From a virus (lineage: Duplodnaviria > Caudoviricetes): a stretch of 28,849 bases of DNA. The notes beneath the pieces were generated by a model that saw only the letters and a program-made list of their open reading frames with translations, was not told where the DNA came from and ran no database searches. The stretch spans positions 1-28,849 of the IMG/VR virus record IMGVR_UViG_3300033388_000633; one strand, given 5' to 3'. The position numbers and the translations under genes were made by a program. Shown here piece after piece: positions 1,786 through 26,389 of this stretch (positions within the stretch are counted from its first letter, which is position 1; each line of letters opens with the position of its first letter).

Positions 1786-2862
1786 ATGGATAAAATACAA
1801 GTAAAAATAGTAGATGACACTATAGAAGATAAAGGGGTTCAGCAAATTGAACAAGAGTTGGTAGATAAACACAACAAAGAAGTTGCTGAAGCTAATGAAG
1901 AATTAAAAGAAGAAAACCCTGAAACGGAGGGTATAAATGACGTTGACGTTCTTTCATATATTAAAAATAGATACGATAGAGATATCAAATCTATTGATGA
2001 GTTGTTTGACGCGAGACAACAAAATGAAGAGTTACCAGAAGATGTGGCTAGTTTTTTTCAATTTAAAAAAGAAACAGGTCGAGGAATGGAGGACTTTTTA
2101 AAAGCGCAACAAGATGTAGAAGATATTTCAGATACTGATTTAATTTCTAATTATTGGAGCGACACTCAACCTCACTTAGACGGAGAAGATATAAAATTTG
2201 AATTTAATAATAAATTTGGATTTAATCCGGATGAAGATGATGAGTCTTTTGTAAGGGAGAGAAAAATCGCTAGAAAAGCAGAACTTGCTAAAGCTAAGAA
2301 ACACTTTAAAGAGCTTCAAGATAAATACAAAACACCTTTATTTGAGTCAAATACTGGTGAATTTACCTCGGAAGATCACAAAGAATTTCTAGCTTACAAG
2401 GAAGCTCAAAACCAAGCACGCACCCAGCAAGAAGAAAGAAGCCGGTATTTTACCGAAAAAACTAATGATGTTTTTAATGATGAGTTTGAAGGTTTCAACT
2501 TTACTATTAATGACAACACTTTTTCATATAAACCGGGGGATGCTAATAAAATGCGTGAATCACAATCTGATTTACAAAATTTTATGAAGCAACATTTAAC
2601 TGATGAAGGGTATATTGCAGACGCTAGAAAGTATCATAGAGCCTTAGCGGCAGCTATGAACCCAGATGCATTTGCAAGATATTTTTACGAGCAGGGTCAG
2701 TCGGATCAAGTTACCGAATCAGCTAAAAGATCAAAAAACATTAACATGGGAGATGATTTAAGGCGATCACCACAAGGAAAAATTTCTAGTGGTTTCAAGG
2801 TAGCAAGTGTTCCTACTAGTCACGGTAATGGGCTACGAATAAGAAGTAAAAATAAAAACTAA
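1786..2862 (+). CDS. Putative capsid scaffolding/assembly protein
   Basis: 358 aa, highly acidic and helical with a basic C-terminal tip (GLRIRSKNKN). It lies between portal and MCP, the usual scaffold position. Confidence 0.65.
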   Translation: MDKIQVKIVDDTIEDKGVQQIEQELVDKHNKEVAEANEELKEENPETEGINDVDVLSYIKNRYDRDIKSIDELFDARQQNEELPEDVASFFQFKKETGRGMEDFLKAQQDVEDISDTDLISNYWSDTQPHLDGEDIKFEFNNKFGFNPDEDDESFVRERKIARKAELAKAKKHFKELQDKYKTPLFESNTGEFTSEDHKEFLAYKEAQNQARTQQEERSRYFTEKTNDVFNDEFEGFNFTINDNTFSYKPGDANKMRESQSDLQNFMKQHLTDEGYIADARKYHRALAAAMNPDAFARYFYEQGQSDQVTESAKRSKNINMGDDLRRSPQGKISSGFKVASVPTSHGNGLRIRSKNKN

Positions 2863-5777: not shown

Positions 5778-6575
5778 ATGATAAATGAAGTCCGTAATAC
5801 AGTCCTAGCTCTTCTTAATAAAAACAACAATGGATACTTAACTCCAGAAGAGTTTAATTTATTAGCCAAGCAAGCTCAGTTAGAGATATATGAAGCATAC
5901 TTCTATAACTATAACGATTGGTTAAATAAACGTAACGCTAGAGTTTCTAATAGTGAATCAGCAGATATTGCTAGAGGATACATAGAAGTAATAGATGGTT
6001 TCAGAGAACCTAATGTACAATTAACTAAAGGGCTTTTAGGTAACGGATACTTTGAACTACCTAATAACTGGTATACTGTAGATGATGTTTATTTAGACCC
6101 TACAGGATTAGGTGTTAATTTTGAATCTTTTGTTCAAGCTGATAGAGTGAGCGCTACTAAAGCTTCTAGACTGTTAAGGTCTAACCTAACTACTCCAACT
6201 GTTGAATACCCTATTTATTTTATGGCTGAGGACACTAACAATCCCCAACCAGGAAACACCACTGAAAGTGGAATTAAATTTTATCCTATTTTCTTAAGCG
6301 ATGGTGTAACACCAGTTGACACAGGAGATGTATATATAAACTATGTAAGATATCCTTTGGACCCTAAGTGGACTTATCAAAGTATAGGTGCGGATGGGGA
6401 TCCTATTTTTGATCCAAATCAACCTGATTATCAAGATTTTGAAATACCTCTTGCTGATTTCATAGGTTTGGTTATCAAGATTTTAGAATACTCAGGATTA
6501 GTTATTAGAGAGCAAGAAGTTATGGCTTTCGCTAACTCTGAGGATATGGAAATTACACAACAAGATAATAGCTAA
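5778..6575 (+). CDS. Putative tail ring / head-tail adaptor protein
   Basis: 265 aa. NKNNNGYLTPEEFNLLAKQAQLEI and NYVRYPLDPKWTY resemble crAss-like ring proteins. First gene of the tail block. Confidence 0.6.
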   Translation: MINEVRNTVLALLNKNNNGYLTPEEFNLLAKQAQLEIYEAYFYNYNDWLNKRNARVSNSESADIARGYIEVIDGFREPNVQLTKGLLGNGYFELPNNWYTVDDVYLDPTGLGVNFESFVQADRVSATKASRLLRSNLTTPTVEYPIYFMAEDTNNPQPGNTTESGIKFYPIFLSDGVTPVDTGDVYINYVRYPLDPKWTYQSIGADGDPIFDPNQPDYQDFEIPLADFIGLVIKILEYSGLVIREQEVMAFANSEDMEITQQDNS

Positions 6576-7382
6576 TGGCATATATAACCGCATATCAATA
6601 CTATACTAATGGAGGTGTAGCACCCACTAATGCAAATTGGGGGAGCTATCAGTACGTTTCACTTAAAGACATTGTAAACAATTTTATGTTAATGTACCAG
6701 GGTGATGACAAGCTTCTAAATAACGTAAGCAAACATTTAGTTTTATTTCACGCTAAACGAGGGATACAAGAATTAAATTATGATGCTTTAAGAAGTATTA
6801 AGGTTTTAGAATTAAGCGTCTGTCATGATTTGAAGTTTATTCTTCCTCCTGATTATGTTAATTATGTAAGAATATCTTTAGAAGTGGGTGGCATTTTATA
6901 TCCACTGCATGAAAATTCCCAAGTTAATTACGCTACAGCTTATTTACAAGACAACAATTGTGAGGTTCTTTTTGATATTGATGGAGATGTGTTAGAGGCT
7001 GAAGAATCTGAATTAGTCAAAGCTAGGATTAAATACAGCCGAAGCTAATGTTAACCCTTCTTTTAGAATAGATAAAGCTGGAGGAGTTATAAACTTTAGT
7101 TCCGGGGTTAGAGATAAATTAGTAGTCTTAGAATATATTTCAGACGGAATGGAAAATGGAGATAACGCTAGTGTCACTATTAATAAACTAGCTGAAGAAT
7201 TTTTGTATAGCTATATTAGATGGGCTATTTTAGACAATAAAATAGGCGTTCAAGAATATGTAGTGAGAAGGGCTAGGAAAGATAAATGGGCTACTTTAAG
7301 GAACGCAAAAATAAGATTGAGTAATATTCACCCTGGCAGATTATTAATGCCTTTACGAGCACGTGATAATTGGATTAAATGA
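6575..7382 (+). pseudogene. Second tail ring/tubular protein, broken into two frames (6575-7048 and 7017-7382)
   Basis: The N-part ends ...SELVKARIKYSRS*. The +1 frame is open from 7017 and reads GLNTAEANVNPSFRIDKAGGVINFSSG...LEYISDGM straight into the 77-aa ORF. The two parts read as one protein. Confidence 0.7.
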
Positions 7383-7660
7383 AATTAACTAGAGGATTTA
7401 TAGCCGGCATTATGAATAAAGACCTGGATGAGCGATTGCTCCCTCCTGGTCAATATAGAGATGCTTTAAATGTAGGAGTTTCAACGTCAGCAGAATCTGA
7501 CGTGGGAGCTATTGAAAACCAATTAGGCAACACTAACATGTCTAATTTAACGTTAGATCCTAGCGCTGTAACAATAGGAGCTGTATCTAACGATTCTGAT
7601 AAGAATATTTATTGGGTATTAATATCATTAATGATTTATTATTTTGGACCGACAACTTAA
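7379..7660 (+). CDS. N-terminal fragment of tail stabilisation/nozzle protein (P22 gp10-like)
   Basis: FIAGIMNKDLDERLLPPGQYRDALNV...VGAIENQLGN is the typical N-terminus of these proteins. After NIYW the reading degenerates and the coding sequence continues in the -1 frame. Confidence 0.75.
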   Translation: MKLTRGFIAGIMNKDLDERLLPPGQYRDALNVGVSTSAESDVGAIENQLGNTNMSNLTLDPSAVTIGAVSNDSDKNIYWVLISLMIYYFGPTT

Positions 7661-10600
7661 ACCCACCTAGAAAGCTAAATGTAACTAGAAACTATTTAGT
7701 AGACGGTTTTGAGGAAGACGACATCTCAGTAATTGTTAAACCTCCATTATTTGCTCCTATAATAAATATGGGAAGCACGTTGCCTGTAGGTGGAGCAGGG
7801 AATATAACCGGTCAAGAAAACAACTTAGAAGAAACGTTTGTTGAGTTTTCTTATAGGTATAAGTACCTAGATAATGAGTATAGCGCCATGGCTCCTTTTT
7901 CCTCAGCCGCTTTTAATGCCTCTGTTTATCAATATGATTATGCTAATTGGTATTTAAAATCTATGACGAATGCCAATAATTTGGTGAACATAACTTTTAG
8001 AGTAGGGGGTCCCCAAGTAAAAGAAATACAACTATTATTTAGAGAATCCCAAAGCACTAATGTATATGTAGTAGAGTCTTATGACTATAGCGCGCCATTT
8101 AATTGGGATTTCGGAGACAACGCGCAGGCGGGCGCCTACGCAGCCGCAGTAGCCTTAACTACTTCTTTCCCTGGAAATGTGGCATTTACAACCCAACCGG
8201 GGTTTGGCTTTGGTTTATCAGGAGAAGGTATCCCAGATAGTTATGAAGTTGGTGACACTGTTTTCATTGATCAAGATCCAGGTTTTACTCATGCTTCATA
8301 CAATGGAGAACACATTATTGTAGAGATTATAGATAGGTATACTATTGTTATTGATGTATTATTCGCAGGCGCTACACCTGTGGAGTCGGGTTCAGTAACC
8401 CTTGAAACAAAAACGATTGAATTTGTCAATAATAAAATATATACCGTTTTACCTTCAGATGAGTTGGGTAGGCTGTTTGATAACGTCCCATTAAAGGCTT
8501 TAGGTCAAGAATTGATAGGTAGTAGATTGGTGTATGGAAATTATGTGCAATTTTTTGATTTAGTGAATCAAAACAATGAAGCTATAGCTTTAGATTTTGA
8601 CCTATATTTAGAATCTAGAGCGGTAGGAGGTTTGCCGGAACGAACTTTTAGAAGCGATAGAGATTATGAAATAGGTATTTGTTATTTAGATAGTTATGGC
8701 AGAATGACTACTGTATTAACTGCTCGCGAAAACAATCTTTATATTTCTCCCGATAACTCTAATTCAGTTAATGATATTCAAGTATACATTAATAGTCCAG
8801 CTCCATCATTTGCTAGCCATTATAGATTATACATTAAACAAGCTAAAGGAGATTATCAAAACATTATACCTTCCTTTTTTGTACAAGAGGGTTTAAAAAG
8901 ATGGTTTCAAATTGGCCCCGGAGATATAAATAAAGTAAAAAAAGGGGAATATCTTATTTGTAAACACACTCCAGAAGGACCCACTTTTAGTAATACTCAA
9001 TATAAAGTTTTAGACATTGAGTCCAAGCCAAAGGATTTTTTAAACATACCTGGCACGCCTCAAACAGCGGGGGTTTATTTTTGCATTAATGACCCTTCGG
9101 GCTTATTTAATACCGCTAGTTTAGATATTTACGCAACTACAAATAGTAGTGTTGGTGGACCGGTAGGATTTGCGAATTTGGGTAATATTTTTTATAGTCA
9201 AATAGATAATCCCATATTTTACGGGCAATCTACCACGGCAGACCGCGTAAAAGTCGTTGCTGTCCCTGGAATTGCAGCTAGTACAGCTCATCAGTCAGCA
9301 CAATACAAAGCCTTCAGAATTAAACTTACTGTAGTTAATGGGGCGACTAATGAATTTAAGTATGAATTTATGTCTCAGGAGGGAGCTTACTCCAACCCCT
9401 TAATGGTAGATACTTCGCTTAGTTCTTTCACACTAACAATGTCTAATAATCCAGCCGCCCCTAATATTTTTTATAACATAACAGTAAATTCAGTAGGGGC
9501 AGTAATCTATGGTGATCCAGTTGCCGCGGTTGTGTGGCCAGATTTACCTAACTCTTATTTAACTAACGACTATTTTATCATTAACGTACACTCGGAAGAG
9601 GCTAAATATACTCTTGATAATAACCTAAATGAAACCCAAGGGAGTGTCCCTGTGCCAGCCACCACCTTTTCCAATGTAGGATACCCTAAAGACAAGGTAA
9701 TACAAGCGGGCGCGCAGATTACTTTTAAGTTAACACATCACAGGTCTACTGGAGAGAATTATGAGGATCCCGCCCAGGTGTTTATCTCTAGCAAAGAATA
9801 TCTAAATTTAGAAGAATGGTTTTGGGAAGATCAAATTTATAGTGCGTTTAATAATCTAACTCCAGAGGGAACCTCCGGTGGATTTGGAGGGAATCAAAGC
9901 AATACAGGTGCAAGTTTAATAAGTTTTGCTCGAGCGTGGGCGACAGGTGTGAACTCAAGTGGAAACACTTATGATGTGTGGCAAAGTAACACTTCTGGAC
10001 CCTTTAGTGGTTACGCTAATTGGAATGAACTTTTAGTATCTGAGGGAAGTATTTGCATGAGAATTGGGACTCCGATAAGTGCTCTAAACGCTGGTACTGG
10101 AGTTGGTTGGTCTTTAACTGTTACTTTTGAAGTTATACAAACCCCAGGGTTGACAGTATTTGAAACCCTACCAGCTGATAATGTACCAGAAATTTACTTT
10201 GAAACCAATAAAACTTTTGCTATATCTAACGGTGTGCATGAGGGGAACCTCCAGAATCAAGTCTTAGGACAATCCCCAGCTAAAGTAAGCTTAAATCCAG
10301 GTGTACTTACAGGGGCGACCACAGAAGATAAAGAGAATAGCAACTTTAACGCATGGGTCTTTTCTAATGCCTTAGAAAGTTATCGAATTAAAGACGCTTG
10401 GAATGGCTATCAACTTAAATACAGCCCTAGAGCAAGTACCGTAATAGATGACTATGAAGAACAAAGGGCTGCTGAAGCTCTTACCTACAGTGGTATATAT
10501 AGAGAAAACACAGGTGTTAATAATCTAAACGAGTTTAATCTTTCTATAGCTAACTTTCGATACTTAGATAAGTTCTTTGGGTCTATTCAAAAACTTCATG

Positions 10601-13110
10601 CTCGAGATACGGATGTAATTGTTTTTCAAGAGGATAAAATAACTAAAGTTTTATATGGTAAAAACTTATTAAATGACGCTATAGGTGGTGGAGATATTGT
10701 TTCAATTCCCGAGGTTTTAGGTACGCAAATTCCTTTTGAAGGTGAATATGGGATAAGTAGTAATCCTGAAAGTTTTGATTATTGGGGGCCAGACATGTTT
10801 TGTACTGATGCAAAAAGAGGTAGTGTGTTGAGTATAAACTCACAAGGCATATACCCTATTTCATCTTCAGGAATGATGGATTACTTTAAAGATGTTTTCA
10901 TATCTTCTCCTAACACTCGAAAAATAGGAGGTGTTGATCCTTTTAAACAGTTTTATACTTTATTTGAAAGCGATATAGAGTTTCCGTGTACTTTTAAATT
11001 ATCGGTTGGTAAAGAGCGTCCTTGGGTTAATCCATTTGATTTATCTTGGAGATCTAGAAACGTATGTGTAACCATCAGTTCTAATGCGACTTGGGGTATT
11101 ACTTTAGTGGATACAGGTGATGGTACCGCTTGGTGTCAAATAAATGGATTCCCGGGACCCACGTATTCCGGTCTAGGCAACGCACAAGTCTGTTTTAATT
11201 TTAATAACAATAACAGTGGAGCAACTAGGTCTCTCCAAATTATATTTCAAGGTTGTGATGAAAGTTATGTCTACAACGTTAATCAATCAGCGTGGAGACC
11301 TATTGAGGTTGATAGTTGGGTGATTGGAAGTCCGATATTAAAACCTCTTAACCCTGTGTGTGTGGTAGATGACGGTGAGTATGTTTCAGATGTGGAATAT
11401 GATTTTAGCTCTAACACTGGGGGTCCTATTGAATTCCCTTCCACTAGAATGAGAAATAAGCCTATTTCTTTTGTCAATAGATATAAAGGTATCGCTGGTC
11501 AACAGTCTGTACCTACACCTGGTGACACTGTTACGTTAAAAGCTTATACAGCGCAAACCCTTAGTAAACAAGGGTTTAATATTGATTTTGGAAACACACT
11601 AAGATACTTGGTTTCAGATGTTCCATACACTGAAGAACAAGTAGAGGATTTATTAGCTCTTTCTACTGCCGCACCATTAGTTCCAGGGGCTGGGTTTGTA
11701 GAAGGTAGTTTTACGTTTAATGTTCCCAATGATGAAGGGTTTTTATATTTAATTTGGGATTTTAGAAACATAAGAAATCCAGGTGTAAGTATTGTGTCTC
11801 CTTCAGGTTCAGAAGGCACAACCTATCATAGTATAAACTACAATGACACGGTAGGTGTTTCTAGAATAAACTATAATGCCAATGCTATAGCTAACAGGTT
11901 TAGGGTTAAATATGGAAACACAGAAGTATTTGATACTGGTTTTGTGGTAGGTGCTGGCTCTTTTAATATTCAGAAAAGTGTTAAAGAAATAGAGAGCGCT
12001 TGCTTGATTGTAGAAACTAGCGGTGTAGATGACGGATGGGACGTGGTTCCTGATCCAACCGCATTAACAAGTTTCTTAACCAATAACGCTGGCACTACTT
12101 TTCCACTTATATGTGCGGCTCCCGTCCCTGTGACTACTAGGTGGCACAACGGAATAAACCCTCTTCCTGTTTTAGGGGACACTATTTTTGAAAACCCTTT
12201 TGGTAGTTCAGTTTTACCTGGTGGTGACTTATATTGGAGAGTAGGGGTTGGTCCCGATGGAGATTATGTTTCATTTGGTGATGATGGAGTAGTGTTTATA
12301 GAAAATAATTGTGCTGCATGTACTGAGGTGGCGGTACCTGTTATAACGGTTCCTGATTTAAACCTCGAGTTAGGTCAAGAAATAAGTCTGCAACTTACAG
12401 CTACTAATAACCCTGAGTCATGGAATTTAGTTAGTTCTTGCGTTTCTTATTCCTTTTTAGGTGGAGAAACGGGTGGAATTTATGAATACACATCTTGTGA
12501 AGACGGTGTAATTAGAGAGGTTTCAGTTCCTCTTCAAGGAAGACAAGTTATATGCTCTTCGACTGTCCCTGTTTTAATTGACGGTTCAGATTCTAGTTTT
12601 ACTGTTGTAGATATTTGTGAGGCGGAGGTAATGCCTCCAACTTTACGATTAGATCAATTTAAAGGCGTGTTAAGCGGAACTATTACCGAAACAGGTGTTT
12701 ATCCAATTGTTATAGAAGCTACTAATTGTTTTGGTACTAGTGCTCCTACTACGTTTGTTGTAGATGTGATTAATGCTAGCGCTTACCGTAGATTCAACAT
12801 GAATACCAACAATCCTGAAACTAATGCCTTAGCCGCGTGTGGAGTTGCTGCAACTTACAGAATATACTACCATAGTGGATTAAGTCCTTATCCGGTAGTA
12901 AATGATTTTGTATACTTTAGATCGGACCGAACAGGTGAATATTTTCCATACAACGGTGGGTATTTATGGTATCTTACAGATGGTGGTGAAGCTATAAGAA
13001 TAGATAGCGTTGGACAAGTGGTAGATGTTAGCATTTGTGGCGTAACAAAAACCACAGAAGCTGGTGATGACAAAACAACAGAAAATGATTTAGACAAAAC
13101 AATAGAATAA
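7603..13110 (+). CDS. Tail stabilisation/nozzle protein (P22 gp10-like) main body with inserted adhesin-like domains
   Basis: Motifs LLFWTDNLNPPRKLN, FSYRYKYLDNEYSA, FDNVPLKA..QELIGSRLVYGNY, YSGIY....GVNNLNEF, GSIQKL and GEYGISSNPES. The TTG at 7612 is unlikely to be a real start; the frame is open from 7603. Confidence 0.78.
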   Translation, partial: EYLLGINIINDLLFWTDNLNPPRKLNVTRNYLVDGFEEDDISVIVKPPLFAPIINMGSTLPVGGAGNITGQENNLEETFVEFSYRYKYLDNEYSAMAPFSSAAFNASVYQYDYANWYLKSMTNANNLVNITFRVGGPQVKEIQLLFRESQSTNVYVVESYDYSAPFNWDFGDNAQAGAYAAAVALTTSFPGNVAFTTQPGFGFGLSGEGIPDSYEVGDTVFIDQDPGFTHASYNGEHIIVEIIDRYTIVIDVLFAGATPVESGSVTLETKTIEFVNNKIYTVLPSDELGRLFDNVPLKALGQELIGSRLVYGNYVQFFDLVNQNNEAIALDFDLYLESRAVGGLPERTFRSDRDYEIGICYLDSYGRMTTVLTARENNLYISPDNSNSVNDIQVYINSPAPSFASHYRLYIKQAKGDYQNIIPSFFVQEGLKRWFQIGPGDINKVKKGEYLICKHTPEGPTFSNTQYKVLDIESKPKDFLNIPGTPQTAGVYFCINDPSGLFNTASLDIYATTNSSVGGPVGFANLGNIFYSQIDNPIFYGQSTTADRVKVVAVPGIAASTAHQSAQYKAFRIKLTVVNGATNEFKYEFMSQEGAYSNPLMVDTSLSSFTLTMSNNPAAPNIFYNITVNSVGAVIYGDPVAAVVWPDLPNSYLTNDYFIINVHSEEAKYTLDNNLNETQGSVPVPATTFSNVGYPKDKVIQAGAQITFKLTHHRSTGENYEDPAQVFISSKEYLNLEEWFWEDQIYSAFNNLTPEGTSGGFGGNQSNTGASLISFARAWATGVNSSGNTYDVWQSNTSGPFSGYANWNELLVSEGSICMRIGTPISALNAGTGVGWSLTVTFEVIQTPGLTVFETLPADNVPEIYFETNKTFAISNGVHEGNLQNQVLGQSPAKVSLNPGVLTGATTEDKENSNFNAWVFSNALESYRIKDAWNGYQLKYSPRASTVIDDYEEQRAAEALTYSGIYRENTGVNNLNEFNLSIANFRYLDKFFGSIQKLHARDTDVIVFQEDKITKVLYGKNLLNDAIGGGDIVSIPEVLGTQIPFEGEYGISSNPESFDYWGPDMFCTDAKRGSVLSINSQGIYPISSSGMMDYFKDVFISSPNTRKIGGVDPFKQFYTLFESDIEFPCTFKLSVGKERPWVNPFDLSWRSRNVCVTISSNATWGITLVDTGDGTAWCQINGFPGPTYSGLGNAQVCFNFNNNNSGATRSLQIIFQGCDESYVYNVNQSAWRPIEVDSWVIGSPILKPLNPVCVVDDGEYVSDVEYDFSSNTGGPIEFPSTRMRNKPISFVNRYKGIAGQQSVPTPGDTVTLKAYTAQTLSKQGFNIDFGNTLRYLVSDVPYTEEQVEDLLALSTAAPLVPGAGFVEGSFTFNVPNDEGFLYLIWDFRNIRNPGVSIVSPSGSEGTTYHSINYNDTVGVSRINYNANAIANRFRVKYGNTEVFDTGFVVGAGSFNIQKSVKEIESACLIVETSGVDDGWDVVPDPTALTSFLTNNAGTTFPLICAAPVPVTTRWHNGINPLPVLGDTIFENPFGSSVLPGGDLYWRVGVGPDGDYVSFGDDGVVFIENNCAACTEVAVPVITVPDLNLELGQEISLQLTATNNPESWNLVSSCVSYSFLGGETGGIYEYTSCEDGVIREVSVPLQGRQVICSSTVPVLIDGSDSSFTVVDICEAEVMPPTLRLDQFKGVLSGTITETGVYPIVIEATNCFGTSAPTTFVVDVINASAYRRFNMNTNNPETNALAACGVAATYRIYYHSGLSPYPVVNDFVYFRSDRTGEYFPYNGGYLWYLTDGGEAIRIDSVGQVVDVSICGVTKTTEAGDDKTTENDLDKTIE
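11053..11286 (+). other. BACON-like domain within the nozzle protein
   Basis: VTISSNATW..(10)..TAW...G.GNAQV.F..NNN.GATR...I.....VNQ matches the W-W-N-R-Q pattern of BACON domains. Confidence 0.6.
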
Positions 13111-17167: not shown

Positions 17168-20100
17168 ATGAACGATAAGACATTAGAATCATTATATAAA
17201 AAATTAGGCTTAGAAGCTAATAATGTAAGTTTTGAAGATTTTAAAGGAGCTTTAGAGGAGTACCCAGAATACAGGGATAATATATTTACAGCGCTTGTAG
17301 ACGCAAAAGAATATACTCAAGAAGAAAGGGGCGCATTTGATGACTTGTTAAAAAAAAAAGAAGAAACTTCGGAGTTGGTTGGAAATCAAGCTCCTACCAC
17401 TACTACATTGGCTACCGATCAGTCGGCTCAGGAAGCTGTTTCGGCTTCTTCCGATTTAGAAAGTAGTCAAGAACCTCAAAACCCTCAAGATGTAATTCAA
17501 GATGAGCAAGAGGTAGTTCAAGCTCAAGACGATACGGAATTACAAATTCAACAAGAGAACACTCAAGAAAATACACCTCCACCTGTTATGGCTAACGCTA
17601 CGGTAGACCAGCCTGAGATTACTAGCGCCACACCTATAATAGAAAACCAAACAGACATGACTCCTCCGGCAGAAATGCCAGATGAATTTGCGCCAATTAA
17701 TGCAGATGATTTAATGACTAGTAAAAGCGAAACTGGTCTGTATCCACAAACGCAAGTAGGCTTTGAAGCGGGTAATGAAGAAGATGGAAATTTAGCCAAC
17801 AAAAAAATGGATTATACTTTTTATCAGATTCCTGTTTCTGAAATGGAGCCCGACCAGGCTTCAAGAGTGGTTAATTATATGCAAGAAAATGGGCTAACTG
17901 AATTAGAGGCTAGAATAAAAAATCCTGACATCTTTATAAACCAAAAGCAATTAGACGCTTTAGAACAAGAGAGAGAAGAAACAAATGAATTTTTAGAAGA
18001 AGGGGTTGGGAATATAATAAACACTATAGGTGATGACATATACAACGATGGATTAGAAGTAACAGAAGGAGAAAATATACCATCGGATTGGAGTACAGAA
18101 TTATATACTGCACCTAATGGATCTACCTATGACAATAAATTAGAATTTATTAACTCCCCAGAGGGTAGGCAATTGATTATGGAAGAAAAAACTTCTATAG
18201 CTGGAGGTGATATAATGAATTTTGACATTAATCGTCACATTTTAGAAGATGCTTTTGTTTTCTCAGGAGCCGACCCAGAACCGTTCGGTTATTATAAAAA
18301 CGAAGACGGTGAATGGGGTGGACCCAGAAGGATGTTTGACTATAGAGGTCTTACTCAAGAATCCTCTGGTCCTGGATTACAGAATGTATTTGATTGGGGA
18401 AGTTTTATTAACCCCGAAACCAATAAACCTTACGACTTAACCAAGGTAAAAAGCTATGATGATTTATCCGTCTTGTGGGATAAGATGTCTCTACACATGA
18501 ACGATGATCAAGCTCAACGCATAATGCAAGAGGCTTATAATCAAAGTATAAATAGTGTTAATAATAAAATTTATGACTACGGTCAAAATTATTTAGATAG
18601 AGCCGACCAAGGGGTTTCTAGGTCTTATAAGCAATTAAGAAACGCTCAATACGACTTAAACTTAATAGTAAATAATCTTGCATACTATGAAGGTTTAGAT
18701 GATAAAATGAAATTTGCTTATGACTCTAAATACACAGAAGCAACAGGATTATCGTATGGCGCCTATTTAGCACAACAATGGGATTTCCAGCAGGCTAATG
18801 TAGAAACAGCTTTATTAGAATATGAACAACAACGTTCCTCTTGGTATAGTGATGAAACTGAACTGATAGATTTAAAAACAGGTAAGTTAATCAACTACGC
18901 AGACGCGGATCAAGAAACTTTAGACTATCATCAAAACATAGATGAAAGTGCGTTAAAATTAGTTAGAAGAAAAGGAAATAACCAAGGGTTTTTAGACGAA
19001 CACTTAAGACGTTCATATTATAATCTAATGGCAATTTCATCTACAATGCCTGATAATTTTGCCGAAGCTTGGTGGGAAGGAAATTCTTACTTTGATGTAG
19101 CTCAAGGAGCTTTATTAGAAGGAATGGTAGGGTTATCAGCAGAAGCTAATAAACTGTTTTTTGATGATGAAGAAATGTATAACAACATTAAAGAGATAGG
19201 AAATAGCTTTTCTAAATGGGGAGGGACTGACAAGCAGACCCTTATCAATTCATCTATGTATGATAAAAACGAAGCCCCTGAATTAAGAGATATGAGGATG
19301 AAAAAGCTTTGGTATTTAGATGGTAACTCACCTTGGATAAATACCTTTAATGAGGCTTTATATGATTTTCAATCAGCTAATAGAGCTGTAGTGTTAAATG
19401 AAGATTACATTCAAAAGGCTAAATTAAACCCTGAGAATAAATTTAATATGTACACCAGGGACTTGTTTATGTCCTTTGATTATCCTGACACACCAGGGAC
19501 TCCTGACGATCCAATGAGTTTTGGTAAATACGGACCAAAAGAGGCTGCCAATCATTGGTCTCAAGTTTTACAACAAAATGGAGTGCAAATATCAGATGAA
19601 GACATGGCTTTTATGGAACAAACTTTTGCAGAAAAGGGAATTCATATGAGTGCTCAAATGACTAATTTCCTATATAAATTTGCTTTAACTAGAGGTATGT
19701 TTAAAGGAGTAGTGGGAACCACGGGCGCTACAGCAGCAGCTCCTCAAGGAGTATATAGATGGGACGCTGTTACGGCAGGGTTGGCGGGCTTAGGTCAAAG
19801 TAAAGCGTATCAACAATCAGTGTTTCTTCTTTCATCTATGTTGCAAGAAGGGTTAATAATGGAGGCTTATCAAGAAGGTTTTGAAGGTGGAGAAGGAATG
19901 GGTTTTTTAGAGGGTGCCGCTCTCGCTGGAGGCTCTGGCGCAATGAATATGGCGTGGAAGGCTATTAATAAAATTCCATTTATGGCTAAAATGCCAGCTA
20001 CCATGGAGAAATTTCTCAATAGTCAATCTCAAGTCGTAGGGGGTATGGGAGGTATGTACACTTCTGAACTAGTTCACGAATTAGGTCATAATAAAGAGTG

Positions 20101-23100
20101 GGGAGAAATAGTAAATAATGTGTTTGCTGGTCCTGACAATAGCCCCGGAGAAAAAGCTTTGTTGCTTTATTTTATGACCGCTGGTATTCAGTATTCTAAA
20201 ACTGGGAAAGAAGATATTACACAGTTTAGAGATGCTATAAAAAAAGACATTCAAAACATATATAATCGAAGCTATAAAAGAGTGCCAGCTTCAATAGCGG
20301 CTAATTACAAAAAATTAGGAATACGTCCTGACGCAACTGACCAGGAAGTAGTAGACGCTTATTTAAAGGCTTCCGAAAAATATGAAGATAAAGGCGGTTA
20401 CAGAGATCCTAATAAAATGGAAGAGTTTATGGAGCTTCATGAGGCTTACACCACTGTTAAAAACCATAGAGGACAAAAATCCAACATAGAACAAGGGTTG
20501 GGGGAAATAGCTAAACAAGAACAACAAGATAAATCTAATCAAGAGCGATATGATCATTTAGATGATTTAGCAATTAAAACTACAGATCCTAGAACTGTAA
20601 TGTTGGGGATTCCAACCTCAACTGAAAATTTAACAACCCTACCTTCAGAACAAAGGATATTAGAAGAAATGCAACCCACGTTTAATGCGGAGGAAGCTAA
20701 CTTTTGGGCTAACAAGAGTGAAGTAGAGATTAAAGATTCTTATGGTTATATAAATAATTTAGTAAAACAAGGCGAAGTTACATCACTTCAAGGAGAACAC
20801 ATGAAGCAACAAATTTCTAATGTTCGTGAAATGATGAAAGGATTAGAGGTGATTGAAAACCCTGAAGCCAAGGCAGAGGCTTATGATTTATCTAATGAAT
20901 TAATTCAACAAGAAAGATTATTAAACCTATATCAATCATCAAAAGTGTCTCCATCTCAAAAAATCAAGCAAGTTGAAGCTAGAATAAAAGAGATTAATAG
21001 TCGATTAACCGAAATAGGAAATAACATTGAAGCACCCGCAAGTCCTATAGAAAAAGCGCAAAATGAATTCAACAGGCTTTTAGAAGAAAAAAGAATGATT
21101 GAAAGCCCAAGCTTTAGAAGTAGTAACTCTAAAGAATATGTAGAACAAATGTTGAGAGATATTAACGGTAAGATTAGTGCTCAAGAGGAAAAAATGATTA
21201 ACGAGTTTGGTGGTCAGTTTTCTGGGGGAGGTTCTAATAGAGTTTACGTAGAAGAAGTAGGTCCTTCTAAGTCTAAAACCGAAACGGAAAAGGGAGATAG
21301 AATAAAAGTAGGAGAGCAAGAGGTTATTGAGGAAGTTCCTGAAAACTTAGAAAGAGAAAATCCAGAGCTGTTAGACGCAGAGCAAAAATCATCTCGAGAC
21401 CAAAAGATAGAGGAAATGCAAGCAGAGGGAGAACAGGCTAGGATTACTCAACTCAAAGATTACATAAAAGAATTAAAAGAAAAAGGTGGAGATGAAAAGC
21501 GGGTACAGGAATTAGAAAAAGAATTAAACGATTTAGAGTCGAAACAAGTTGAACCATTAAAAACTGAAAAAGATGCCGATAGTGAGCCAGAACCAATGGA
21601 AGTACCTAGCGAAGAACAAGCCGAAAGTGTTCAAGAGACTGAAGAGATACAACCCGATGACGCGACTCCAGGACCTTCCGAAGTCAGCGCCCAACCGAAA
21701 GCCGACAAGACGACCCCACCGAAACGTTACAAGGACCTAAGAGATTCTGAAAACACCTCTGGAGACCCTCAATTAGAAAGAGTATATGGCGAGATTGAAA
21801 GTGAAATTGCTGAAAAAGTTGAAGCTAGAGATAGAAGAGATAGATACGTGAAAGACAGGTCAGCTATGACTACTAAACAACAAGAAGCTACAGACCGAAG
21901 GGTAAATGCGGAAACTAAAGAGGCTGCTTTAGAATACTTAATGAGGTCTAAATGGTATGAAAACGCCACAGACCTACAAAGAGATGCCGCCTTTAAAGAG
22001 GTGAGTTATCGATTTGGAGCGCCTAAGAAGCGATTAAACGCTCAAGACAGAGCTAACCAAGCTGTAGGGAATAAAGGACGTCAGAAGTTCGTAGATGAGC
22101 TCCAAATGCTTAAAGATCAATTTAAGATAGCTAATAAGGCTGGGAAAGATGTTAGGTATATAGTAGACAATATTCGTAAATATGTAGATCGAAACTTCAC
22201 TTCTAAAAAAGGAGGGGTAAAAATCAACTGGACTACCGGTGACGCTAAGAAGCTTTATAAAAACCTAACAGATGAAAGAGCTGTTCTAGAAAAAGCTTAC
22301 ACAAATAAAAACGGAGACAGGATTAAAAAGTCTATTGCTCGTTTAGAAGAAATAACGAAAGAGATAGACCAGCTTATAGAAAACAAAACTCGCCCTACTT
22401 ATGTAGCGTGGTTAAAAGAAAATACGGTAGTAGATAATTTAACTACTGAGTCTGGTAGTGCTCAAATCTCGGTGAATAAAATTAAAGAACTAAGACAGTA
22501 TGTGGATAATTTAAAAAAACCATTTGAGGAAATGACCACTACCGAACTAGAGCAAACTATTAGTGATGTTCAACAAATTATAAAAGAAGGTAAAGACGCT
22601 AAAACATTAGAGAGAAGTCGTAAGCAAAAATCTCAAATGGAAAATAAGGGTAAAATAGCAAAAGAGTTATATGTTGAAGGGGAAGATTTTAGCCAAGATG
22701 TAAACACCTACGAGGAGGCTGAGGCATATTTAGGATCTCAGAAAACTGACCTTAAACAACCCTTAAAAACTTTAGAATTAGACCAAGAAAAAACTTTTAA
22801 AAACGAACAAGGAGAAGAGGTGTCGTTAGAAAAAGGAATTAGCGACAAGCGATCAAAATTAAGAAAATTAAGAGAAGAGGCAGAAAATATTGAAGAGGAA
22901 GTAATTGCTGATGAGGTGGTTGCTGATGAGGTGGTTGCGGAAGAACCTGTCTCAGATGAGGTAATAGAATTAGAACCAATAGACCCAACAGAAGCTGACT
23001 TTTCATCTTATGATGTTAAAAACGCTGAAGAGAATCCAGCATTGGAGCCCTATATTAATTCAGAGGTGGAATCATCTAGAGATATGTTAGGGGGTCCAAA

Positions 23101-23290
23101 AGCTATTCAAGAAACGGCAGAATTAGGAAAAAAATTAGATGCAGACAATGCTAATGTGGTGTTTAAGAGAGATTTAGGGATTGTAGGTGGTCGAAGAATA
23201 TTTGAATTTGAAGTAGAAGGTACAGGAGAAAAATTCTTAATGTACAAATCTAAAGGAGAGGGAACTGGTCCTGAATCAAAAGGAAAATAG
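17168..23290 (+). CDS. Giant putative ejection/cargo protein, N-terminal part (to in-frame TAG)
   Basis: 2040-aa ORF with an acidic low-complexity N-region, G/A-rich hydrophobic helices (~19650-20190), a J-like domain and long coiled coils. Same frame as the next ORF. Confidence 0.7.
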   Translation: MNDKTLESLYKKLGLEANNVSFEDFKGALEEYPEYRDNIFTALVDAKEYTQEERGAFDDLLKKKEETSELVGNQAPTTTTLATDQSAQEAVSASSDLESSQEPQNPQDVIQDEQEVVQAQDDTELQIQQENTQENTPPPVMANATVDQPEITSATPIIENQTDMTPPAEMPDEFAPINADDLMTSKSETGLYPQTQVGFEAGNEEDGNLANKKMDYTFYQIPVSEMEPDQASRVVNYMQENGLTELEARIKNPDIFINQKQLDALEQEREETNEFLEEGVGNIINTIGDDIYNDGLEVTEGENIPSDWSTELYTAPNGSTYDNKLEFINSPEGRQLIMEEKTSIAGGDIMNFDINRHILEDAFVFSGADPEPFGYYKNEDGEWGGPRRMFDYRGLTQESSGPGLQNVFDWGSFINPETNKPYDLTKVKSYDDLSVLWDKMSLHMNDDQAQRIMQEAYNQSINSVNNKIYDYGQNYLDRADQGVSRSYKQLRNAQYDLNLIVNNLAYYEGLDDKMKFAYDSKYTEATGLSYGAYLAQQWDFQQANVETALLEYEQQRSSWYSDETELIDLKTGKLINYADADQETLDYHQNIDESALKLVRRKGNNQGFLDEHLRRSYYNLMAISSTMPDNFAEAWWEGNSYFDVAQGALLEGMVGLSAEANKLFFDDEEMYNNIKEIGNSFSKWGGTDKQTLINSSMYDKNEAPELRDMRMKKLWYLDGNSPWINTFNEALYDFQSANRAVVLNEDYIQKAKLNPENKFNMYTRDLFMSFDYPDTPGTPDDPMSFGKYGPKEAANHWSQVLQQNGVQISDEDMAFMEQTFAEKGIHMSAQMTNFLYKFALTRGMFKGVVGTTGATAAAPQGVYRWDAVTAGLAGLGQSKAYQQSVFLLSSMLQEGLIMEAYQEGFEGGEGMGFLEGAALAGGSGAMNMAWKAINKIPFMAKMPATMEKFLNSQSQVVGGMGGMYTSELVHELGHNKEWGEIVNNVFAGPDNSPGEKALLLYFMTAGIQYSKTGKEDITQFRDAIKKDIQNIYNRSYKRVPASIAANYKKLGIRPDATDQEVVDAYLKASEKYEDKGGYRDPNKMEEFMELHEAYTTVKNHRGQKSNIEQGLGEIAKQEQQDKSNQERYDHLDDLAIKTTDPRTVMLGIPTSTENLTTLPSEQRILEEMQPTFNAEEANFWANKSEVEIKDSYGYINNLVKQGEVTSLQGEHMKQQISNVREMMKGLEVIENPEAKAEAYDLSNELIQQERLLNLYQSSKVSPSQKIKQVEARIKEINSRLTEIGNNIEAPASPIEKAQNEFNRLLEEKRMIESPSFRSSNSKEYVEQMLRDINGKISAQEEKMINEFGGQFSGGGSNRVYVEEVGPSKSKTETEKGDRIKVGEQEVIEEVPENLERENPELLDAEQKSSRDQKIEEMQAEGEQARITQLKDYIKELKEKGGDEKRVQELEKELNDLESKQVEPLKTEKDADSEPEPMEVPSEEQAESVQETEEIQPDDATPGPSEVSAQPKADKTTPPKRYKDLRDSENTSGDPQLERVYGEIESEIAEKVEARDRRDRYVKDRSAMTTKQQEATDRRVNAETKEAALEYLMRSKWYENATDLQRDAAFKEVSYRFGAPKKRLNAQDRANQAVGNKGRQKFVDELQMLKDQFKIANKAGKDVRYIVDNIRKYVDRNFTSKKGGVKINWTTGDAKKLYKNLTDERAVLEKAYTNKNGDRIKKSIARLEEITKEIDQLIENKTRPTYVAWLKENTVVDNLTTESGSAQISVNKIKELRQYVDNLKKPFEEMTTTELEQTISDVQQIIKEGKDAKTLERSRKQKSQMENKGKIAKELYVEGEDFSQDVNTYEEAEAYLGSQKTDLKQPLKTLELDQEKTFKNEQGEEVSLEKGISDKRSKLRKLREEAENIEEEVIADEVVADEVVAEEPVSDEVIELEPIDPTEADFSSYDVKNAEENPALEPYINSEVESSRDMLGGPKAIQETAELGKKLDADNANVVFKRDLGIVGGRRIFEFEVEGTGEKFLMYKSKGEGTGPESKGK
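17350..17466 (+). other. A10 slippery tract with -1 frame extension (KKKRRNFGVGWKSSSYHYYIGYRSVGSGSCFGFFRFRK*)
   Basis: Ten consecutive A at 17350-17359. The -1 frame is open for 38 codons to TAG at 17464-17466. Confidence 0.5.
20303..20464 (+). other. DnaJ J-domain-like segment lacking HPD
   Basis: NYKKLGIRPDATDQEVVDAYLKASEKYEDKGG...EEFMELHEAYTTV aligns by eye to the J-domain consensus YxxLGVxxxAsxxEIKKAYRKLAxKYHPDK...EKFKEINEAYEVL. Confidence 0.7.
21573..21740 (+). CDS. Nested +1-frame small basic protein, 55 aa (MPIVSQNQWKYLAKNKPKVFKRLKRYNPMTRLQDLPKSAPNRKPTRRPHRNVTRT)
   Basis: ATG...TAA ORF inside the giant gene with an A-rich leader (TTAAAAACTGAAAAAG) and a locally raised GC content. Resembles small phage proteins starting MPFKSxxQxxYL. 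Not in the ORF track. Confidence 0.65.
   Translation: MPIVSQNQWKYLAKNKPKVFKRLKRYNPMTRLQDLPKSAPNRKPTRRPHRNVTRT
22905..22938 (+). repeat. 15-bp tandem repeat TTGCTGATGAGGTGG x2.3 (ADEVV repeats)
   Basis: Two exact copies (22905-22919, 22920-22934) plus TTGC, in an acidic linker. Confidence 0.9.
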
Positions 23291-26200
23291 GTTCCATTAA
23301 AATACTTCGCTAAAGACGGTTGGTTTGTTAAAGGAAGAGTAGATAACGAGGGTAACTTAAGTATGGAGCCACTTACTAACGAAAACAATCCGAAGTTTAA
23401 TAAATACGGAAGTGAGACCTTTAAAGAGTTAGCCAAAAAACTAGAAGCTGACGCAGAAGCTGTAAAAAATGAAAACACTACCGAAACTAAAGAAGAGGTT
23501 GCAACAGAAGAAGTGGCGGAAACTAAGAGAACTAAAGAAGATGTACAAAAAGAAATCGAAGCTACTGAAAATGAAATTGAACAATTAGAAGAGGTTTTAA
23601 ATGAACTACCTACTCAAGCAGAATTAGACGCTGCTAGAGACAGGTTGATTAATGAAGCTAGAGATTCAGACGCTATAGATAAAATTGAAAATGCATACGA
23701 AAAAGCTTCTAAACGTTTAAGACAGGAAGAGGCAAGTTCAAGTGTAACTTTTGATCCTAGGGACGGTTTTGTATTGGTTACAACGAAAGACGGAAAGACG
23801 TATCTCGTTAAAAGTAAATCAGACTTAAATAAAATTGACCCAGAGGAATTTGAGTCAGGAACTGGATATGTCAGTAAAGATGTTCAAATTAGTAGACAAC
23901 AACAACAAGCTATTCAAGGTGAAGAATTAAAGGATAAACTAAAAAGCGAAGCGGAAAAAGCTGTTAAAAAGATAGCAAAACCTTTCCATGGAGCCTCTAT
24001 TAAAACTATCAAAACTCTATTAGAAAGAGTGGGTCTAGGTAAGCCAGAACTAAAAGAAGCTACTGTTGATATTTATGAAGACATTGTAGCGGCTAGAAGA
24101 AATATTCAAAAACTTGCTGATGAGTTAACCACATCGCTAAATGAAGTGAAAAAAGAAAACAAAATCACTGATAAGTTTTTATTGAAAGCTAAATCAAAAG
24201 ATGGTAAATCAAGCACAAGAAATATTATAAAACACGAAACTCCAGAATCTTCTTATGAGATTACCAATGACACAGCCGTAGATTTATATATGCTTAAAAT
24301 AGCGGAAGGTAAATACAGGTTAGAGCAAACAGGTGTAGATGTAGCTGAATTGGACTCCTATATGGACGCCAATCCAGAGCTAAAAAAATACGCAGAAGAC
24401 ATGTTAGACTGGTATGAGTCTACAAGACCTTATTTTAAAGATGTGTTTGAAGATGTAACAGGTAGAACTTTTGAGGACTTCAATAGAAACCCTGACGGAG
24501 AAGAGTTGCGTTATATGCCTATTTGGGCAAAAGGCACAAGTGAGAGACCAGGGTCAGATCTTATAACAAGTGATAATTTTACTTTAGGTATAAAAGGCGG
24601 TAAAGATCAAAACTATTCTAGCAGTGTAATGACTGATCGTTTTAAACAAGTAATGAGTAAAGACGGTAGATGGGAGCGCCCTGAAGGTCCATATCAAATG
24701 ACAGGAGCTAACACAAAGGCATTAGATTACATTAAAGAGATGACTCATACTAATGAGATGTGGGATGTCAACCAAAAAATTAAAGGGCTAATTAACCCAC
24801 AAACAGAAGGGAAATTAATTGACATGATGGGAGAAGAGAACTATAGATCTCTTAAGTCTCAATTAGACGAAATAACGGGCGGAGAAAATAAATACCAAAC
24901 TCAAGTTGAGTCTGTTATAAATAAAGTTAATAAAGCTGGTGTGGTATATAGACTAGCATTTAACACCTTGAATATAGCCAAACAAGCAACTACCGCCACT
25001 CATTGGCTTGGAGCTGGAATAAAAGACGGGGTATACCCTTGGGATATGGTGGCGCAGTCCGGATTAAGCGTTACTGACCTGGTTGGTAAAAACGGGAAAG
25101 AAAAGGTAAATTTCATTTGGGATATAATAACAGATCCTCAAATAAAAAATAGATGGAAAAAAACCGCTATAGACCCTGCCTTTGAAGAGTTTATTAATAA
25201 AGCGTCTACCACTAAAGAATGGAGCGTTACCCAAAAGAGAAGAATGTTAGGTAAACTTTTAACTGACATAGGAATGAAGCCTACGCAAGTTGGGGATATG
25301 CTTGGAGTTTTAGGCGGAGGAATTCCTTACGCGTTAGCTTATAGGACGAAGTACATAAAAGACGGATACTCTAAAGCTCAAGCTTCAGAAATGGCTCTAG
25401 GTAAAATGACTAAGCTAATGAACGAGTTACAGCAATCTCAAGAAGGTTACGCTACTACACCACTACAAAGAAGTTTATTAGGTAGAACGTTTGTGACTCA
25501 ATATAAGAGTTCTCAAATTCAAGCTGTAAACAAACAAATGCAAGTAATTCAAGAAATAAGAGATTCTAAAAACGCTACCACTAATGAGAAGGCTCAAATG
25601 GCATACGATTTTATTTATTGGAGCATGTTTAACGCTGGCTTTAGTGCTTTCGCAACAGGATACGCAGCGGATGTATTAGGTCTTAGTGATTCTGACGATA
25701 AAGGTGAAGAACGAACACAACACAACTTTATAGAAGGTATGATGAGTTCACAACTTCAAGGTATGGGTATGTTAGGGTTAGTAGCTGAATTTGGAATGAA
25801 TGAATTTATTGGACAAGACTGGAAAAACAACAACCCAATGATTGACTTTATAAGTGATATTACTGGAGCTGTCTATGAGGCAAGCACAACAGGTATTGGG
25901 GATATGACTGAAAAGGTGGAGAAAGGAGATTTACTAAAAAGTGTAATTGACTTAGAAATAAAAAATAAAATAATTGAAGCCGCTGAAAATGATGGATGGA
26001 GTACGGCTATTGATATGTATGACGATTATATGTTTTCTACACATGGAGATAAATTAGAAGGAGAAGGAGAAGTAAGTAAATTGTGGGCAGAAAAATTTGA
26101 AAAAGAACGAAACGCTTTAATTAAATTTAGTGAAAAAGAAAGCTTTATAAAAGCTATAACCCCCAATGGTTTAGCTAAGATTTTTGATGCAATTTCAGGG

Positions 26201-26389
26201 GATGCAGAATTGTTAGACCTTGTTATTAAGCGAGTTCAAGGATATGATGAAATAAAAGAAAAAGAGAAAAGAAGAGTAGATAAATTATTTGAACTAACTA
26301 AAGGTAAAAAATACATTGAAGACGAACCAAAGAAACAGACTGAGAAAGCGAACGTGTTGAAGTATGAAGACGAAAACTCGGCTTATTGA
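23291..26389 (+). CDS. Giant putative ejection/cargo protein, C-terminal part (in frame with 17168-23290)
   Basis: Bases 23291-23362 are open in the same frame (VPLKYFAKDGWFVKGRVDNEGNLS) and lead into the 1008-aa ORF. LAFNTLNIAKQ and G/A-rich helices resemble the C-terminal helical region of large phage internal proteins. Confidence 0.7.
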   Translation, partial: VPLKYFAKDGWFVKGRVDNEGNLSMEPLTNENNPKFNKYGSETFKELAKKLEADAEAVKNENTTETKEEVATEEVAETKRTKEDVQKEIEATENEIEQLEEVLNELPTQAELDAARDRLINEARDSDAIDKIENAYEKASKRLRQEEASSSVTFDPRDGFVLVTTKDGKTYLVKSKSDLNKIDPEEFESGTGYVSKDVQISRQQQQAIQGEELKDKLKSEAEKAVKKIAKPFHGASIKTIKTLLERVGLGKPELKEATVDIYEDIVAARRNIQKLADELTTSLNEVKKENKITDKFLLKAKSKDGKSSTRNIIKHETPESSYEITNDTAVDLYMLKIAEGKYRLEQTGVDVAELDSYMDANPELKKYAEDMLDWYESTRPYFKDVFEDVTGRTFEDFNRNPDGEELRYMPIWAKGTSERPGSDLITSDNFTLGIKGGKDQNYSSSVMTDRFKQVMSKDGRWERPEGPYQMTGANTKALDYIKEMTHTNEMWDVNQKIKGLINPQTEGKLIDMMGEENYRSLKSQLDEITGGENKYQTQVESVINKVNKAGVVYRLAFNTLNIAKQATTATHWLGAGIKDGVYPWDMVAQSGLSVTDLVGKNGKEKVNFIWDIITDPQIKNRWKKTAIDPAFEEFINKASTTKEWSVTQKRRMLGKLLTDIGMKPTQVGDMLGVLGGGIPYALAYRTKYIKDGYSKAQASEMALGKMTKLMNELQQSQEGYATTPLQRSLLGRTFVTQYKSSQIQAVNKQMQVIQEIRDSKNATTNEKAQMAYDFIYWSMFNAGFSAFATGYAADVLGLSDSDDKGEERTQHNFIEGMMSSQLQGMGMLGLVAEFGMNEFIGQDWKNNNPMIDFISDITGAVYEASTTGIGDMTEKVEKGDLLKSVIDLEIKNKIIEAAENDGWSTAIDMYDDYMFSTHGDKLEGEGEVSKLWAEKFEKERNALIKFSEKESFIKAITPNGLAKIFDAISGDAELLDLVIKRVQGYDEIKEKEKRRVDKLFELTKGKKYIEDEPKKQTEKANVLKYEDENSAY

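Follow-up and report, generated by a model that had tools for sequence, protein, structure and literature searches.

A small basic gene of the MPFKS family nested in the +1 frame of a giant virion-module gene of a Flavobacteriia-type podovirus

The stretch of DNA that was analysed in this work, a 28.8-kb virus record that is 47% complete (referred to below as the window), contains within the reading frame of a giant gene a second, complete gene (21573..21740, + strand), which encodes a 55 aa QW-type member of the MPFKS or phrog_1375-like family of small phage proteins. The explanation that best accounts for our results, to which we assign a probability of roughly 60%, is that this is a basic gene from an old family, which lies inside a giant virion gene in its +1 frame, is likely translated from an A-rich start of its own and specifies a predicted DNA-binding protein of the phage head. 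That the nested ORF is a real gene under selection is, taken by itself, almost certain. Embedded phage genes are already known from the spanins and from phiX174 E, and the MPFKS gene differs from them in occupying two unrelated host genes; to this the window adds a QW allele inside a giant gene and a selection signal at the strain level.

The window represents the virion module of a marine phage, a Flavobacteriia-type podovirus, and includes a portal gene, a scaffold-like gene, a capsid gene, muzzle-like genes and, at the end of the module, the giant gene (17168..26389, + strand). Based upon the capsid protein, the nearest isolates are Maribacter phage Panino (55%), Flavobacterium phage Elemo (48%) and Cellulophaga phi38:1 (40%). 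The giant gene is split in the window by a TAG (23288-23290), but both sister contigs have TGG at this position, indicating a single ORF of 3078 aa rather than one of 2040 aa, and for the same reason read-through of this TAG was rejected. The TAG is either a variant specific to this record or an assembly error, and one of the sisters also contains 15 additional bases near 24649. Two other virion genes appear to be split (6575-7048 and 7149-7382, both of which match phrog_13977, and 7379-7660 and 7612-13110, which are muzzle-like), and since both sister records contain extra bases (about 110 at 7026-7030 and about 120 at 7615), assembly deletions at these two places in the window are likely.

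From the position and size of the giant gene we infer a role in cargo or ejection. The only close homologues of its product that were found are those in the two sister contigs and in P0002. No homologues were detected among the loci of the QW comparison or in the five records searched, which are fragments and hence uninformative, and a search of 18 records (16 lacking a scaffold copy plus the two sisters) gave three matches, two of which are the sisters, the 15 blanks saying little because every record is a fragment. Residues 1548-1696 of the giant protein (21809..22255, + strand) exhibit weak homology (E 5e-8 to 7e-4) to seven other giant genes, and these seven also carry a nested gene at a variable distance upstream of the shared domain. 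A DnaJ-like J-domain is seen at residues 1047-1100 (about 20300-20470), with a Pfam E value of 2.7e-5 that is just under the cut-off. A further patch of the giant gene (22937-23260) is variable, with strains from the runs X1 and X4 differing strongly by many substitutions and small gaps between near-identical flanks.

The nested ORF begins with the ATG at 21573, inside host codon 1469, and ends with the TAA at 21738-21740; it lies on the + strand, one base ahead of the 17168-23290 frame, and is a complete +1-frame ORF as originally predicted. The same prediction had described a GC-richer patch, a product with one acidic residue and many Lys and Arg, an A-rich leader and an acidic linker in the host frame, and all of these descriptions hold. 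The GC content of the ORF is 0.52 as against 0.37 for the giant gene, which places it in the top 0.13% of 168-nt windows, and its 6.69 kDa product has a pI of about 12, with 16 K+R and a single acidic residue (Asp). The host frame across the nested gene (21572..21739, + strand; codons 1469-1524) reads DADSEPEPMEVPSEEQAESVQ and is an acidic, Pro-rich linker that tolerates radical changes.

Translation initiation in Flavobacterium is described, in the part of the work on this subject that bears on leader sequences, as requiring no Shine-Dalgarno sequence and as being raised by A at positions -3, -6, -12 and -13 (PMC6847099). All four of these are present in the putative initiation region of the nested ORF (21560..21572, + strand), a combination that occurs at 2 of the 111 +1-frame ATGs of the giant gene, and these A positions are kept in 82-100% of the nested relatives. 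In view of the presence of all four and of the weak predicted structure of the leader (-0.2 kcal/mol), internal initiation at the nested ATG is likely, and we infer that this region is used in the cell.

The length, open frame and basicity of the ORF, by contrast with its family match and substitution pattern, prove nothing. When the host protein was held fixed and its codons were redrawn (20,000 draws), the +1 frame remained open for 55 codons in 78% of the draws and had an ATG start in 66%; an acidic host linker is also expected to cast a basic shadow in its +1 frame, and five other +1-frame stop-free runs of equal or greater length are present in the window. These three features are hence at the chance level, which is exceeded by the family match and the substitution pattern alone. 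Openness, ATG and basicity all follow from the host sequence, and +1 ORFs of similar length are common, as they would be if the ORF were a chance shadow of the acidic linker or of a conserved motif in the host frame. However, the family score of the nested ORF in a position matrix was reached by none of the 20,000 synonymous recodings (and by 0.07% of them for residues 9-23 alone). In comparisons with 20 QW copies, 14-17 of 23 residues are conserved in the nested frame as against 7-12 of 23 in the host frame, and at loci with a closed host-side frame members of this family occur as stand-alone genes. Together with the entropy at nested positions and the strain-variant substitutions described below, these results refute a chance shadow, which retains only a negligible probability.

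The original prediction had pointed to a family of small phage proteins with an MPFKS-type start, and such a family does exist. A degenerate motif, which combined the predicted pattern with the window peptide, matched an estimated 2300 or so stored viral stretches. The 120 matches listed comprised 77 stand-alone genes, 15 N-terminal modules of longer proteins and 28 +1-nested copies, so that 92 of the 120 loci are free-standing or fused; for a pattern that included the C-terminal motif of the window peptide, all 120 of the matches listed were nested in long open frames. The family is found in Streptomyces, cyanobacterial, marine and Flavobacteriia phages, and its stand-alone members include proteins annotated as hypothetical (023Pt_psg01 URG13095.1 and Streptomyces phage FlowerPower gp48). 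An unannotated stand-alone member of 36 aa is present in Synechococcus phage S-CBS2 (L281:5001), between gp045 and gp046 and downstream of the major head gene. The MPFKS module also heads longer low-complexity proteins, including those at loci L011, L076, L165, L174, L191, L192, L199, L200 and L208, and in fused proteins a motif of the GG(I/R) type often comes after it.

Of 57 aligned family members, 28 match phrog_1375 and 29 are missed by it, while the nested peptide has no match in PHROGs up to E 10. Since half of the members also miss phrog_1375, the link of the nested ORF to the family runs through the QW subfamily, a fused protein of which (L152) matches phrog_1375 at E 1.6e-14; the window peptide is a divergent, nested QW variant lacking a direct match to it. 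A non-circular profile was constructed from 120 further loci (113 of them distinct), chosen only by MPFKSxxQ and by a host-side frame closed by TAA, of which the 109 of at least 25 aa were used, all of them non-nested. With this profile the nested ORF ranked first among 1002 six-frame segments (E 0.0035, 13.9 bits), the next segment having an E value of 0.52, and with a broader profile it gave E 0.027 among 34,715 segments. By the position matrix it was also first of 959 stop-free +1-frame windows, both over its whole length and on residues 9-23 alone. After removal of the first 8 columns of the profile, the nested ORF was absent from its 8 best matches, and the sequence match to the family should be regarded as modest. 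The core residues of the family (M1, P2, S5, Q8, [YF]11, [LM]12, N15, P17, [IV]19 and K21) are all present in the nested ORF, which begins at residue 1 of the family and has a basic tail; F3, K4, A20 and W23 of the family are replaced, and the tail is about 12 residues longer than in most members.

Homology searches had been proposed as a check on the original prediction, and the outcome depends upon the query: the peptide alone gave no real match in phmmer, PHROGs, Pfam or tblastn and no candidate in a set of 5.8 billion sequences, whereas the 109-member profile gave the match noted above. The sole phmmer match in 1.84 billion sequences (P0001) is a tandem-repeat artefact, tblastn against phages returned only rows at E 5-8, and a Pfam match to FOXO_KIX (E 0.044) is below the cut-off of that family. 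DUF3008 (PF11450), for which there is only an ESM Atlas feature score of 0.82, was rejected as it is matched by none of the 57 members, and the PDB sequence matches to designed repeat proteins owe their scores to the addition of 2.9-bit repeats. A search of the open-access literature found no account of the MPFKS or phrog_1375-like family or of its nesting.

The two sister assemblies carry the nested ORF without any difference, and a strain variant, represented by contigs from two studies, has 12 changes inside it but keeps the ATG and the stop, which agrees with the proposed conservation of the +1 start and frame. Of these 12 changes, seven affect the third and two the first position of nested codons, and the other three affect host position 3, in contrast to the flanking changes, 7 of 8 of which are at host position 3 (Fisher p=0.020, in a test that consists of one variant haplotype and 20 sites). 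The nested protein is altered by Y11F, K18E, V19I, R22K and N41S, the first four of which lead to residues common in the family, and the host protein by eight changes, among which E>K and P>S are each seen two times. A comparable pattern is seen in relatives. For 28 scaffold-nested copies (those that are distinct, ATG-started and ungapped among 44 profile-positive ones), entropy is 0.66/0.64/0.93 at nested positions 1/2/3, as compared to 0.87/0.63/1.27 at the host positions of the host core, and nested-silent changes number 215 as against 83 host-silent ones, with opportunities of 0.155 and 0.221, the pairs being non-independent. Entropy in 109 giant-type copies is 0.33/0.14/0.79, values which are partly forced by the search pattern and on which the main case for selection does not draw.

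These selection patterns in the strain variant and the relatives, together with the profile match, support the original prediction of a real hidden gene. Selection acts on the nested frame while the host linker drifts, and the host frame is a passenger. The description of the gene as overprinted, however, does not stand in its strict sense. As the family is old, is present in unrelated phages and is mostly free-standing or fused, and as selection is on its frame, this is not a new overprint, and a de novo origin was rejected; it is the host that reads through the gene. It may also be considered that the ORF is a decaying relic, i.e., a cassette that was captured as linker DNA and whose translation has been lost in this phage. 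The divergence of the ORF from the family consensus and its long tail are in accordance with this, as is the existence of broken copies (three contigs have a TAG at codon 13, and Elemo contains a second copy of 10 codons). However, the strain variant shows changes that are silent in the nested frame and changes directed toward the consensus, with ATG and stop intact, and the leader retains all four A positions, which makes a relic very improbable.

The same family is also nested in a second type of host gene. Of 80 loci for which the scaffold-like protein was the sole basis of selection, 48 contain a nested copy, including 44 at >=10 bits, one found by the broader profile, two divergent ones recognized by eye and one cut by a contig end. 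The remaining 32 loci have no visible copy (three of them are cut at the 5' end), and this, together with the TAG-bearing QW contigs, indicates that the gene can be lost. The ATG and leader are conserved in all 44 profile-positive scaffold copies, the ATG being at the first position of the profile in 42 and one codon earlier in two, and a product of ribosomal frameshifting is therefore unnecessary as an explanation. The window's own scaffold-like gene (1786..2862, + strand), which lies between the portal and capsid genes and is an orthologue of the genes that host nested ORFs elsewhere, contains no nested copy. A second +1-nested ORF, with the motif QEWxExxKxPxPH[KR]NKKKY, is found at host codons 80-142 in 5 of the 80 scaffold loci (L306, L319, L333, L350 and L356), three times beside an MPFKS copy and twice without one; it was not found in the window.

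In a midpoint-rooted tree of 99 scaffold cores, two clades with supports of 1.0 and 0.954 are observed. All of the scaffold-nested copies belong to one of these clades. The window branches within the second, which also contains Elemo, MW202828 and G008, and in each of these three phages the gene lies inside the giant gene, in its +1 frame. All 68 of 68 Elemo records match the giant-nested copy (100% over residues 1-29), and the annotation at the nested copy, in the Elemo rows listed (60 of 70), is that of the giant gene alone; the GenBank records of Elemo and MW202828 likewise leave the nested form unannotated. At codon 1097 of the Elemo giant gene (L363:31984), a truncated second copy of 10 codons is present 132 codons upstream of the intact one. 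No copy of the family was found in phi38:1 or in the examined parts of Panino and phi13:2. Every one of the nested copies that were observed lies inside a head or virion gene.

The closest relatives of the nested ORF are those of the QW subfamily (MPIQSQAQW...), which are nested at codons 45-67 of scaffold genes from the other clade. The QW copies share I3, N15, P17 and F20 (13/13 each) and V19 and L23 (12/13 each), which are positions unfixed by the search pattern. At the DNA level, codons 13-24 show an identity of 69% to 24 QW copies, as compared to 42% to 109 giant-type copies, and a tract of 99 nt (21545..21643, + strand), consisting of 28 nt of leader and codons 1-24, shows 72.7% identity to scaffold-nested copies (E 4e-9). 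Codons 25-37 (NPxxxLxxLPK; 21645..21683, + strand), unlike most QW copies, are in the ungapped register of the giant-nested copies; the giant-type match in this part consists of 6 residues fixed by the search pattern, though it was first seen in L069, L084 and L385. In a tree of the small proteins, based upon about 41 residues, the nested ORF joins the QW copies with a support of 0.79. Some QW copies (L126, L127 and L145, and also L020, L050 and L375) have a TAG at codon 13 with the downstream part still family-like, which indicates either a recent loss or read-through.

Based upon these sequence comparisons, we somewhat favour the view that a scaffold-nested QW allele of the other clade was the source from which the 5' part of the gene (codons 1-24) was imported by recombination, with 21545..21643 as the likely recombinant tract. 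A gene resident in the giant gene would have had its 5' half replaced from the scaffold-nested allele, and its site, which follows a coiled-coil-like stretch and precedes the conserved giant domain, would be the usual giant-gene site of the clade. Since the QW copy L140 keeps the long register, the residues matching the giant type are pattern-fixed and the support is 0.79, the gene may alternatively belong to an old QW lineage that is not mosaic, and the similarity of the A-rich leaders of the window and the QW copies could be due to convergence. A broader suggestion, which is somewhat less probable than not, is that the MPFKS gene is a portable cassette forming a near-universal head component of aquatic tailed phages, and that the window has caught an exchange between non-homologous host genes.

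The AlphaFold model of the nested product (pLDDT 85) consists of helices at residues 6-15 and 17-26 followed by an extended basic tail. Comparison with solved structures gave no match backing any function, with none found by Foldseek against PDB at E<=0.001 or by VIA-align at Z>=2, and the best Foldseek rows against viral models were small uncharacterised phage proteins (E 0.12-0.9). The product is small and strongly basic, as would be expected of a DNA-condensing virion core protein, and this putative role, which was part of the original prediction, is plausible; its basicity is also expected from the host linker. Our prediction that it is a DNA-binding head protein is a tentative one, with the balance close to even. 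The protein would be made by internal initiation on the late transcript and packaged into heads, where the two short helices and the basic tail would bind DNA and may offset its charge or order it during packaging or ejection. The confinement of the observed nested copies to head or virion genes, and the portal or terminase genes found near some stand-alone copies (see below), also speak for a role in the head. DNA is favoured as the ligand since portal families differ among the phages in which the MPFKS family occurs.

A role in which the protein docks through its helices on the portal, terminase or scaffold, either as a helper in head assembly or packaging or as a module for capsid targeting, with the tail being secondary, is in our judgment a good deal less probable. 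Conservation in the family is concentrated in residues 1-27 and at hydrophobic positions rather than in the tail, a portal or terminase gene is located within 1.5 kb at 14 of the 36 stand-alone loci tested (65 of 77 flanking ORFs submitted), and the module heads larger proteins at 15 of 120 loci, many of which continue as low-complexity, Gly-rich sequence, so that the module resembles a targeting tag, all of which would be expected for docking or targeting. However, the different portal families of the phages concerned would better suit a universal ligand such as DNA, and 23 of 26 fused proteins have no PHROG match. Small basic helical phage proteins can also act on host machines, and a non-virion protein that acts late in infection on nucleic acid, ribosomes or a host enzyme would be in accordance with the location of some stand-alone copies next to lysis, glycosyltransferase or DNA-metabolism genes. 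With all observed nested copies sitting in head or virion genes, and with hosts spanning several phyla, this is improbable.

A model for how a DNA-binding MPFKS protein may work is provided by protein J of phiX174, which acts in the capsid. The DNA-binding protein J is described, in an account that touches upon it, as very small, basic and mostly unfolded (PMC9865509). J is a protein of ssDNA phages in which the basic part precedes the hydrophobic one, the reverse of the MPFKS family, and no sequence or fold match was found between it and the nested product. With regard to nesting, phiX174 E lies inside D as an internal overlap, for which disorder in one of the frames has been proposed, in the part of the source concerned, to relieve constraint (PMC8227390); in that pair it is the nested frame, E, that is new, whereas the MPFKS gene is old and constrained although nested, and the free frame is that of its host linker. 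The genes for the large cargo proteins gp45-gp50 of crAss001, which are found in the virion, follow the muzzle gene, and the portion of the report that describes them mentions no nested gene (PMC10172136). The giant gene of the window is likewise downstream of muzzle-like genes, a likeness that is positional only.

The embedded spanins resemble the MPFKS gene in being complete small genes that lie within a larger phage gene, in its +1 frame. According to the relevant sections of one study, lambda Rz1 lies in the +1 frame of Rz, spanin genes may be embedded, overlapped or separated and are often missed in annotation, the nested forms are argued to derive from separated genes, and no spanin family mixes the embedded with other architectures (PMC6139136). 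Rz1 is an outer-membrane lipoprotein that binds the product of its host gene, and its position is tied to Rz; the MPFKS family, unlike the spanins, is nested in two unrelated genes and mixes all architectures. An embedded o-spanin was rejected for the window, as the 55 aa contain no Cys and no hydrophobic signal and the host is a 3078-aa virion-module gene.

Because the nested gene has been missed by annotation, as in Elemo and MW202828, it is absent from gene counts and from the databases used in virion mass spectrometry. Its arrangement is the reverse of textbook overprinting, the nested gene being old and constrained and the host linker being the free frame, and the same gene is found in two host genes that are unrelated, between which there is a sign of exchange. 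With Elemo and its Flavobacterium host, the function of this very large uncharacterised family is open to direct testing. Lys- and Arg-rich codons of the gene, when read one base earlier, are rich in Glu, Gln and Asp, and the host therefore reads the gene as a tolerable acidic linker. If the proposal of a portable cassette is true, this harmless reading would enable MPFKS codons to lodge in unrelated virion genes, and the shared MPFKS sequence would let alleles from the scaffold gene and the giant ejection gene recombine between clades.
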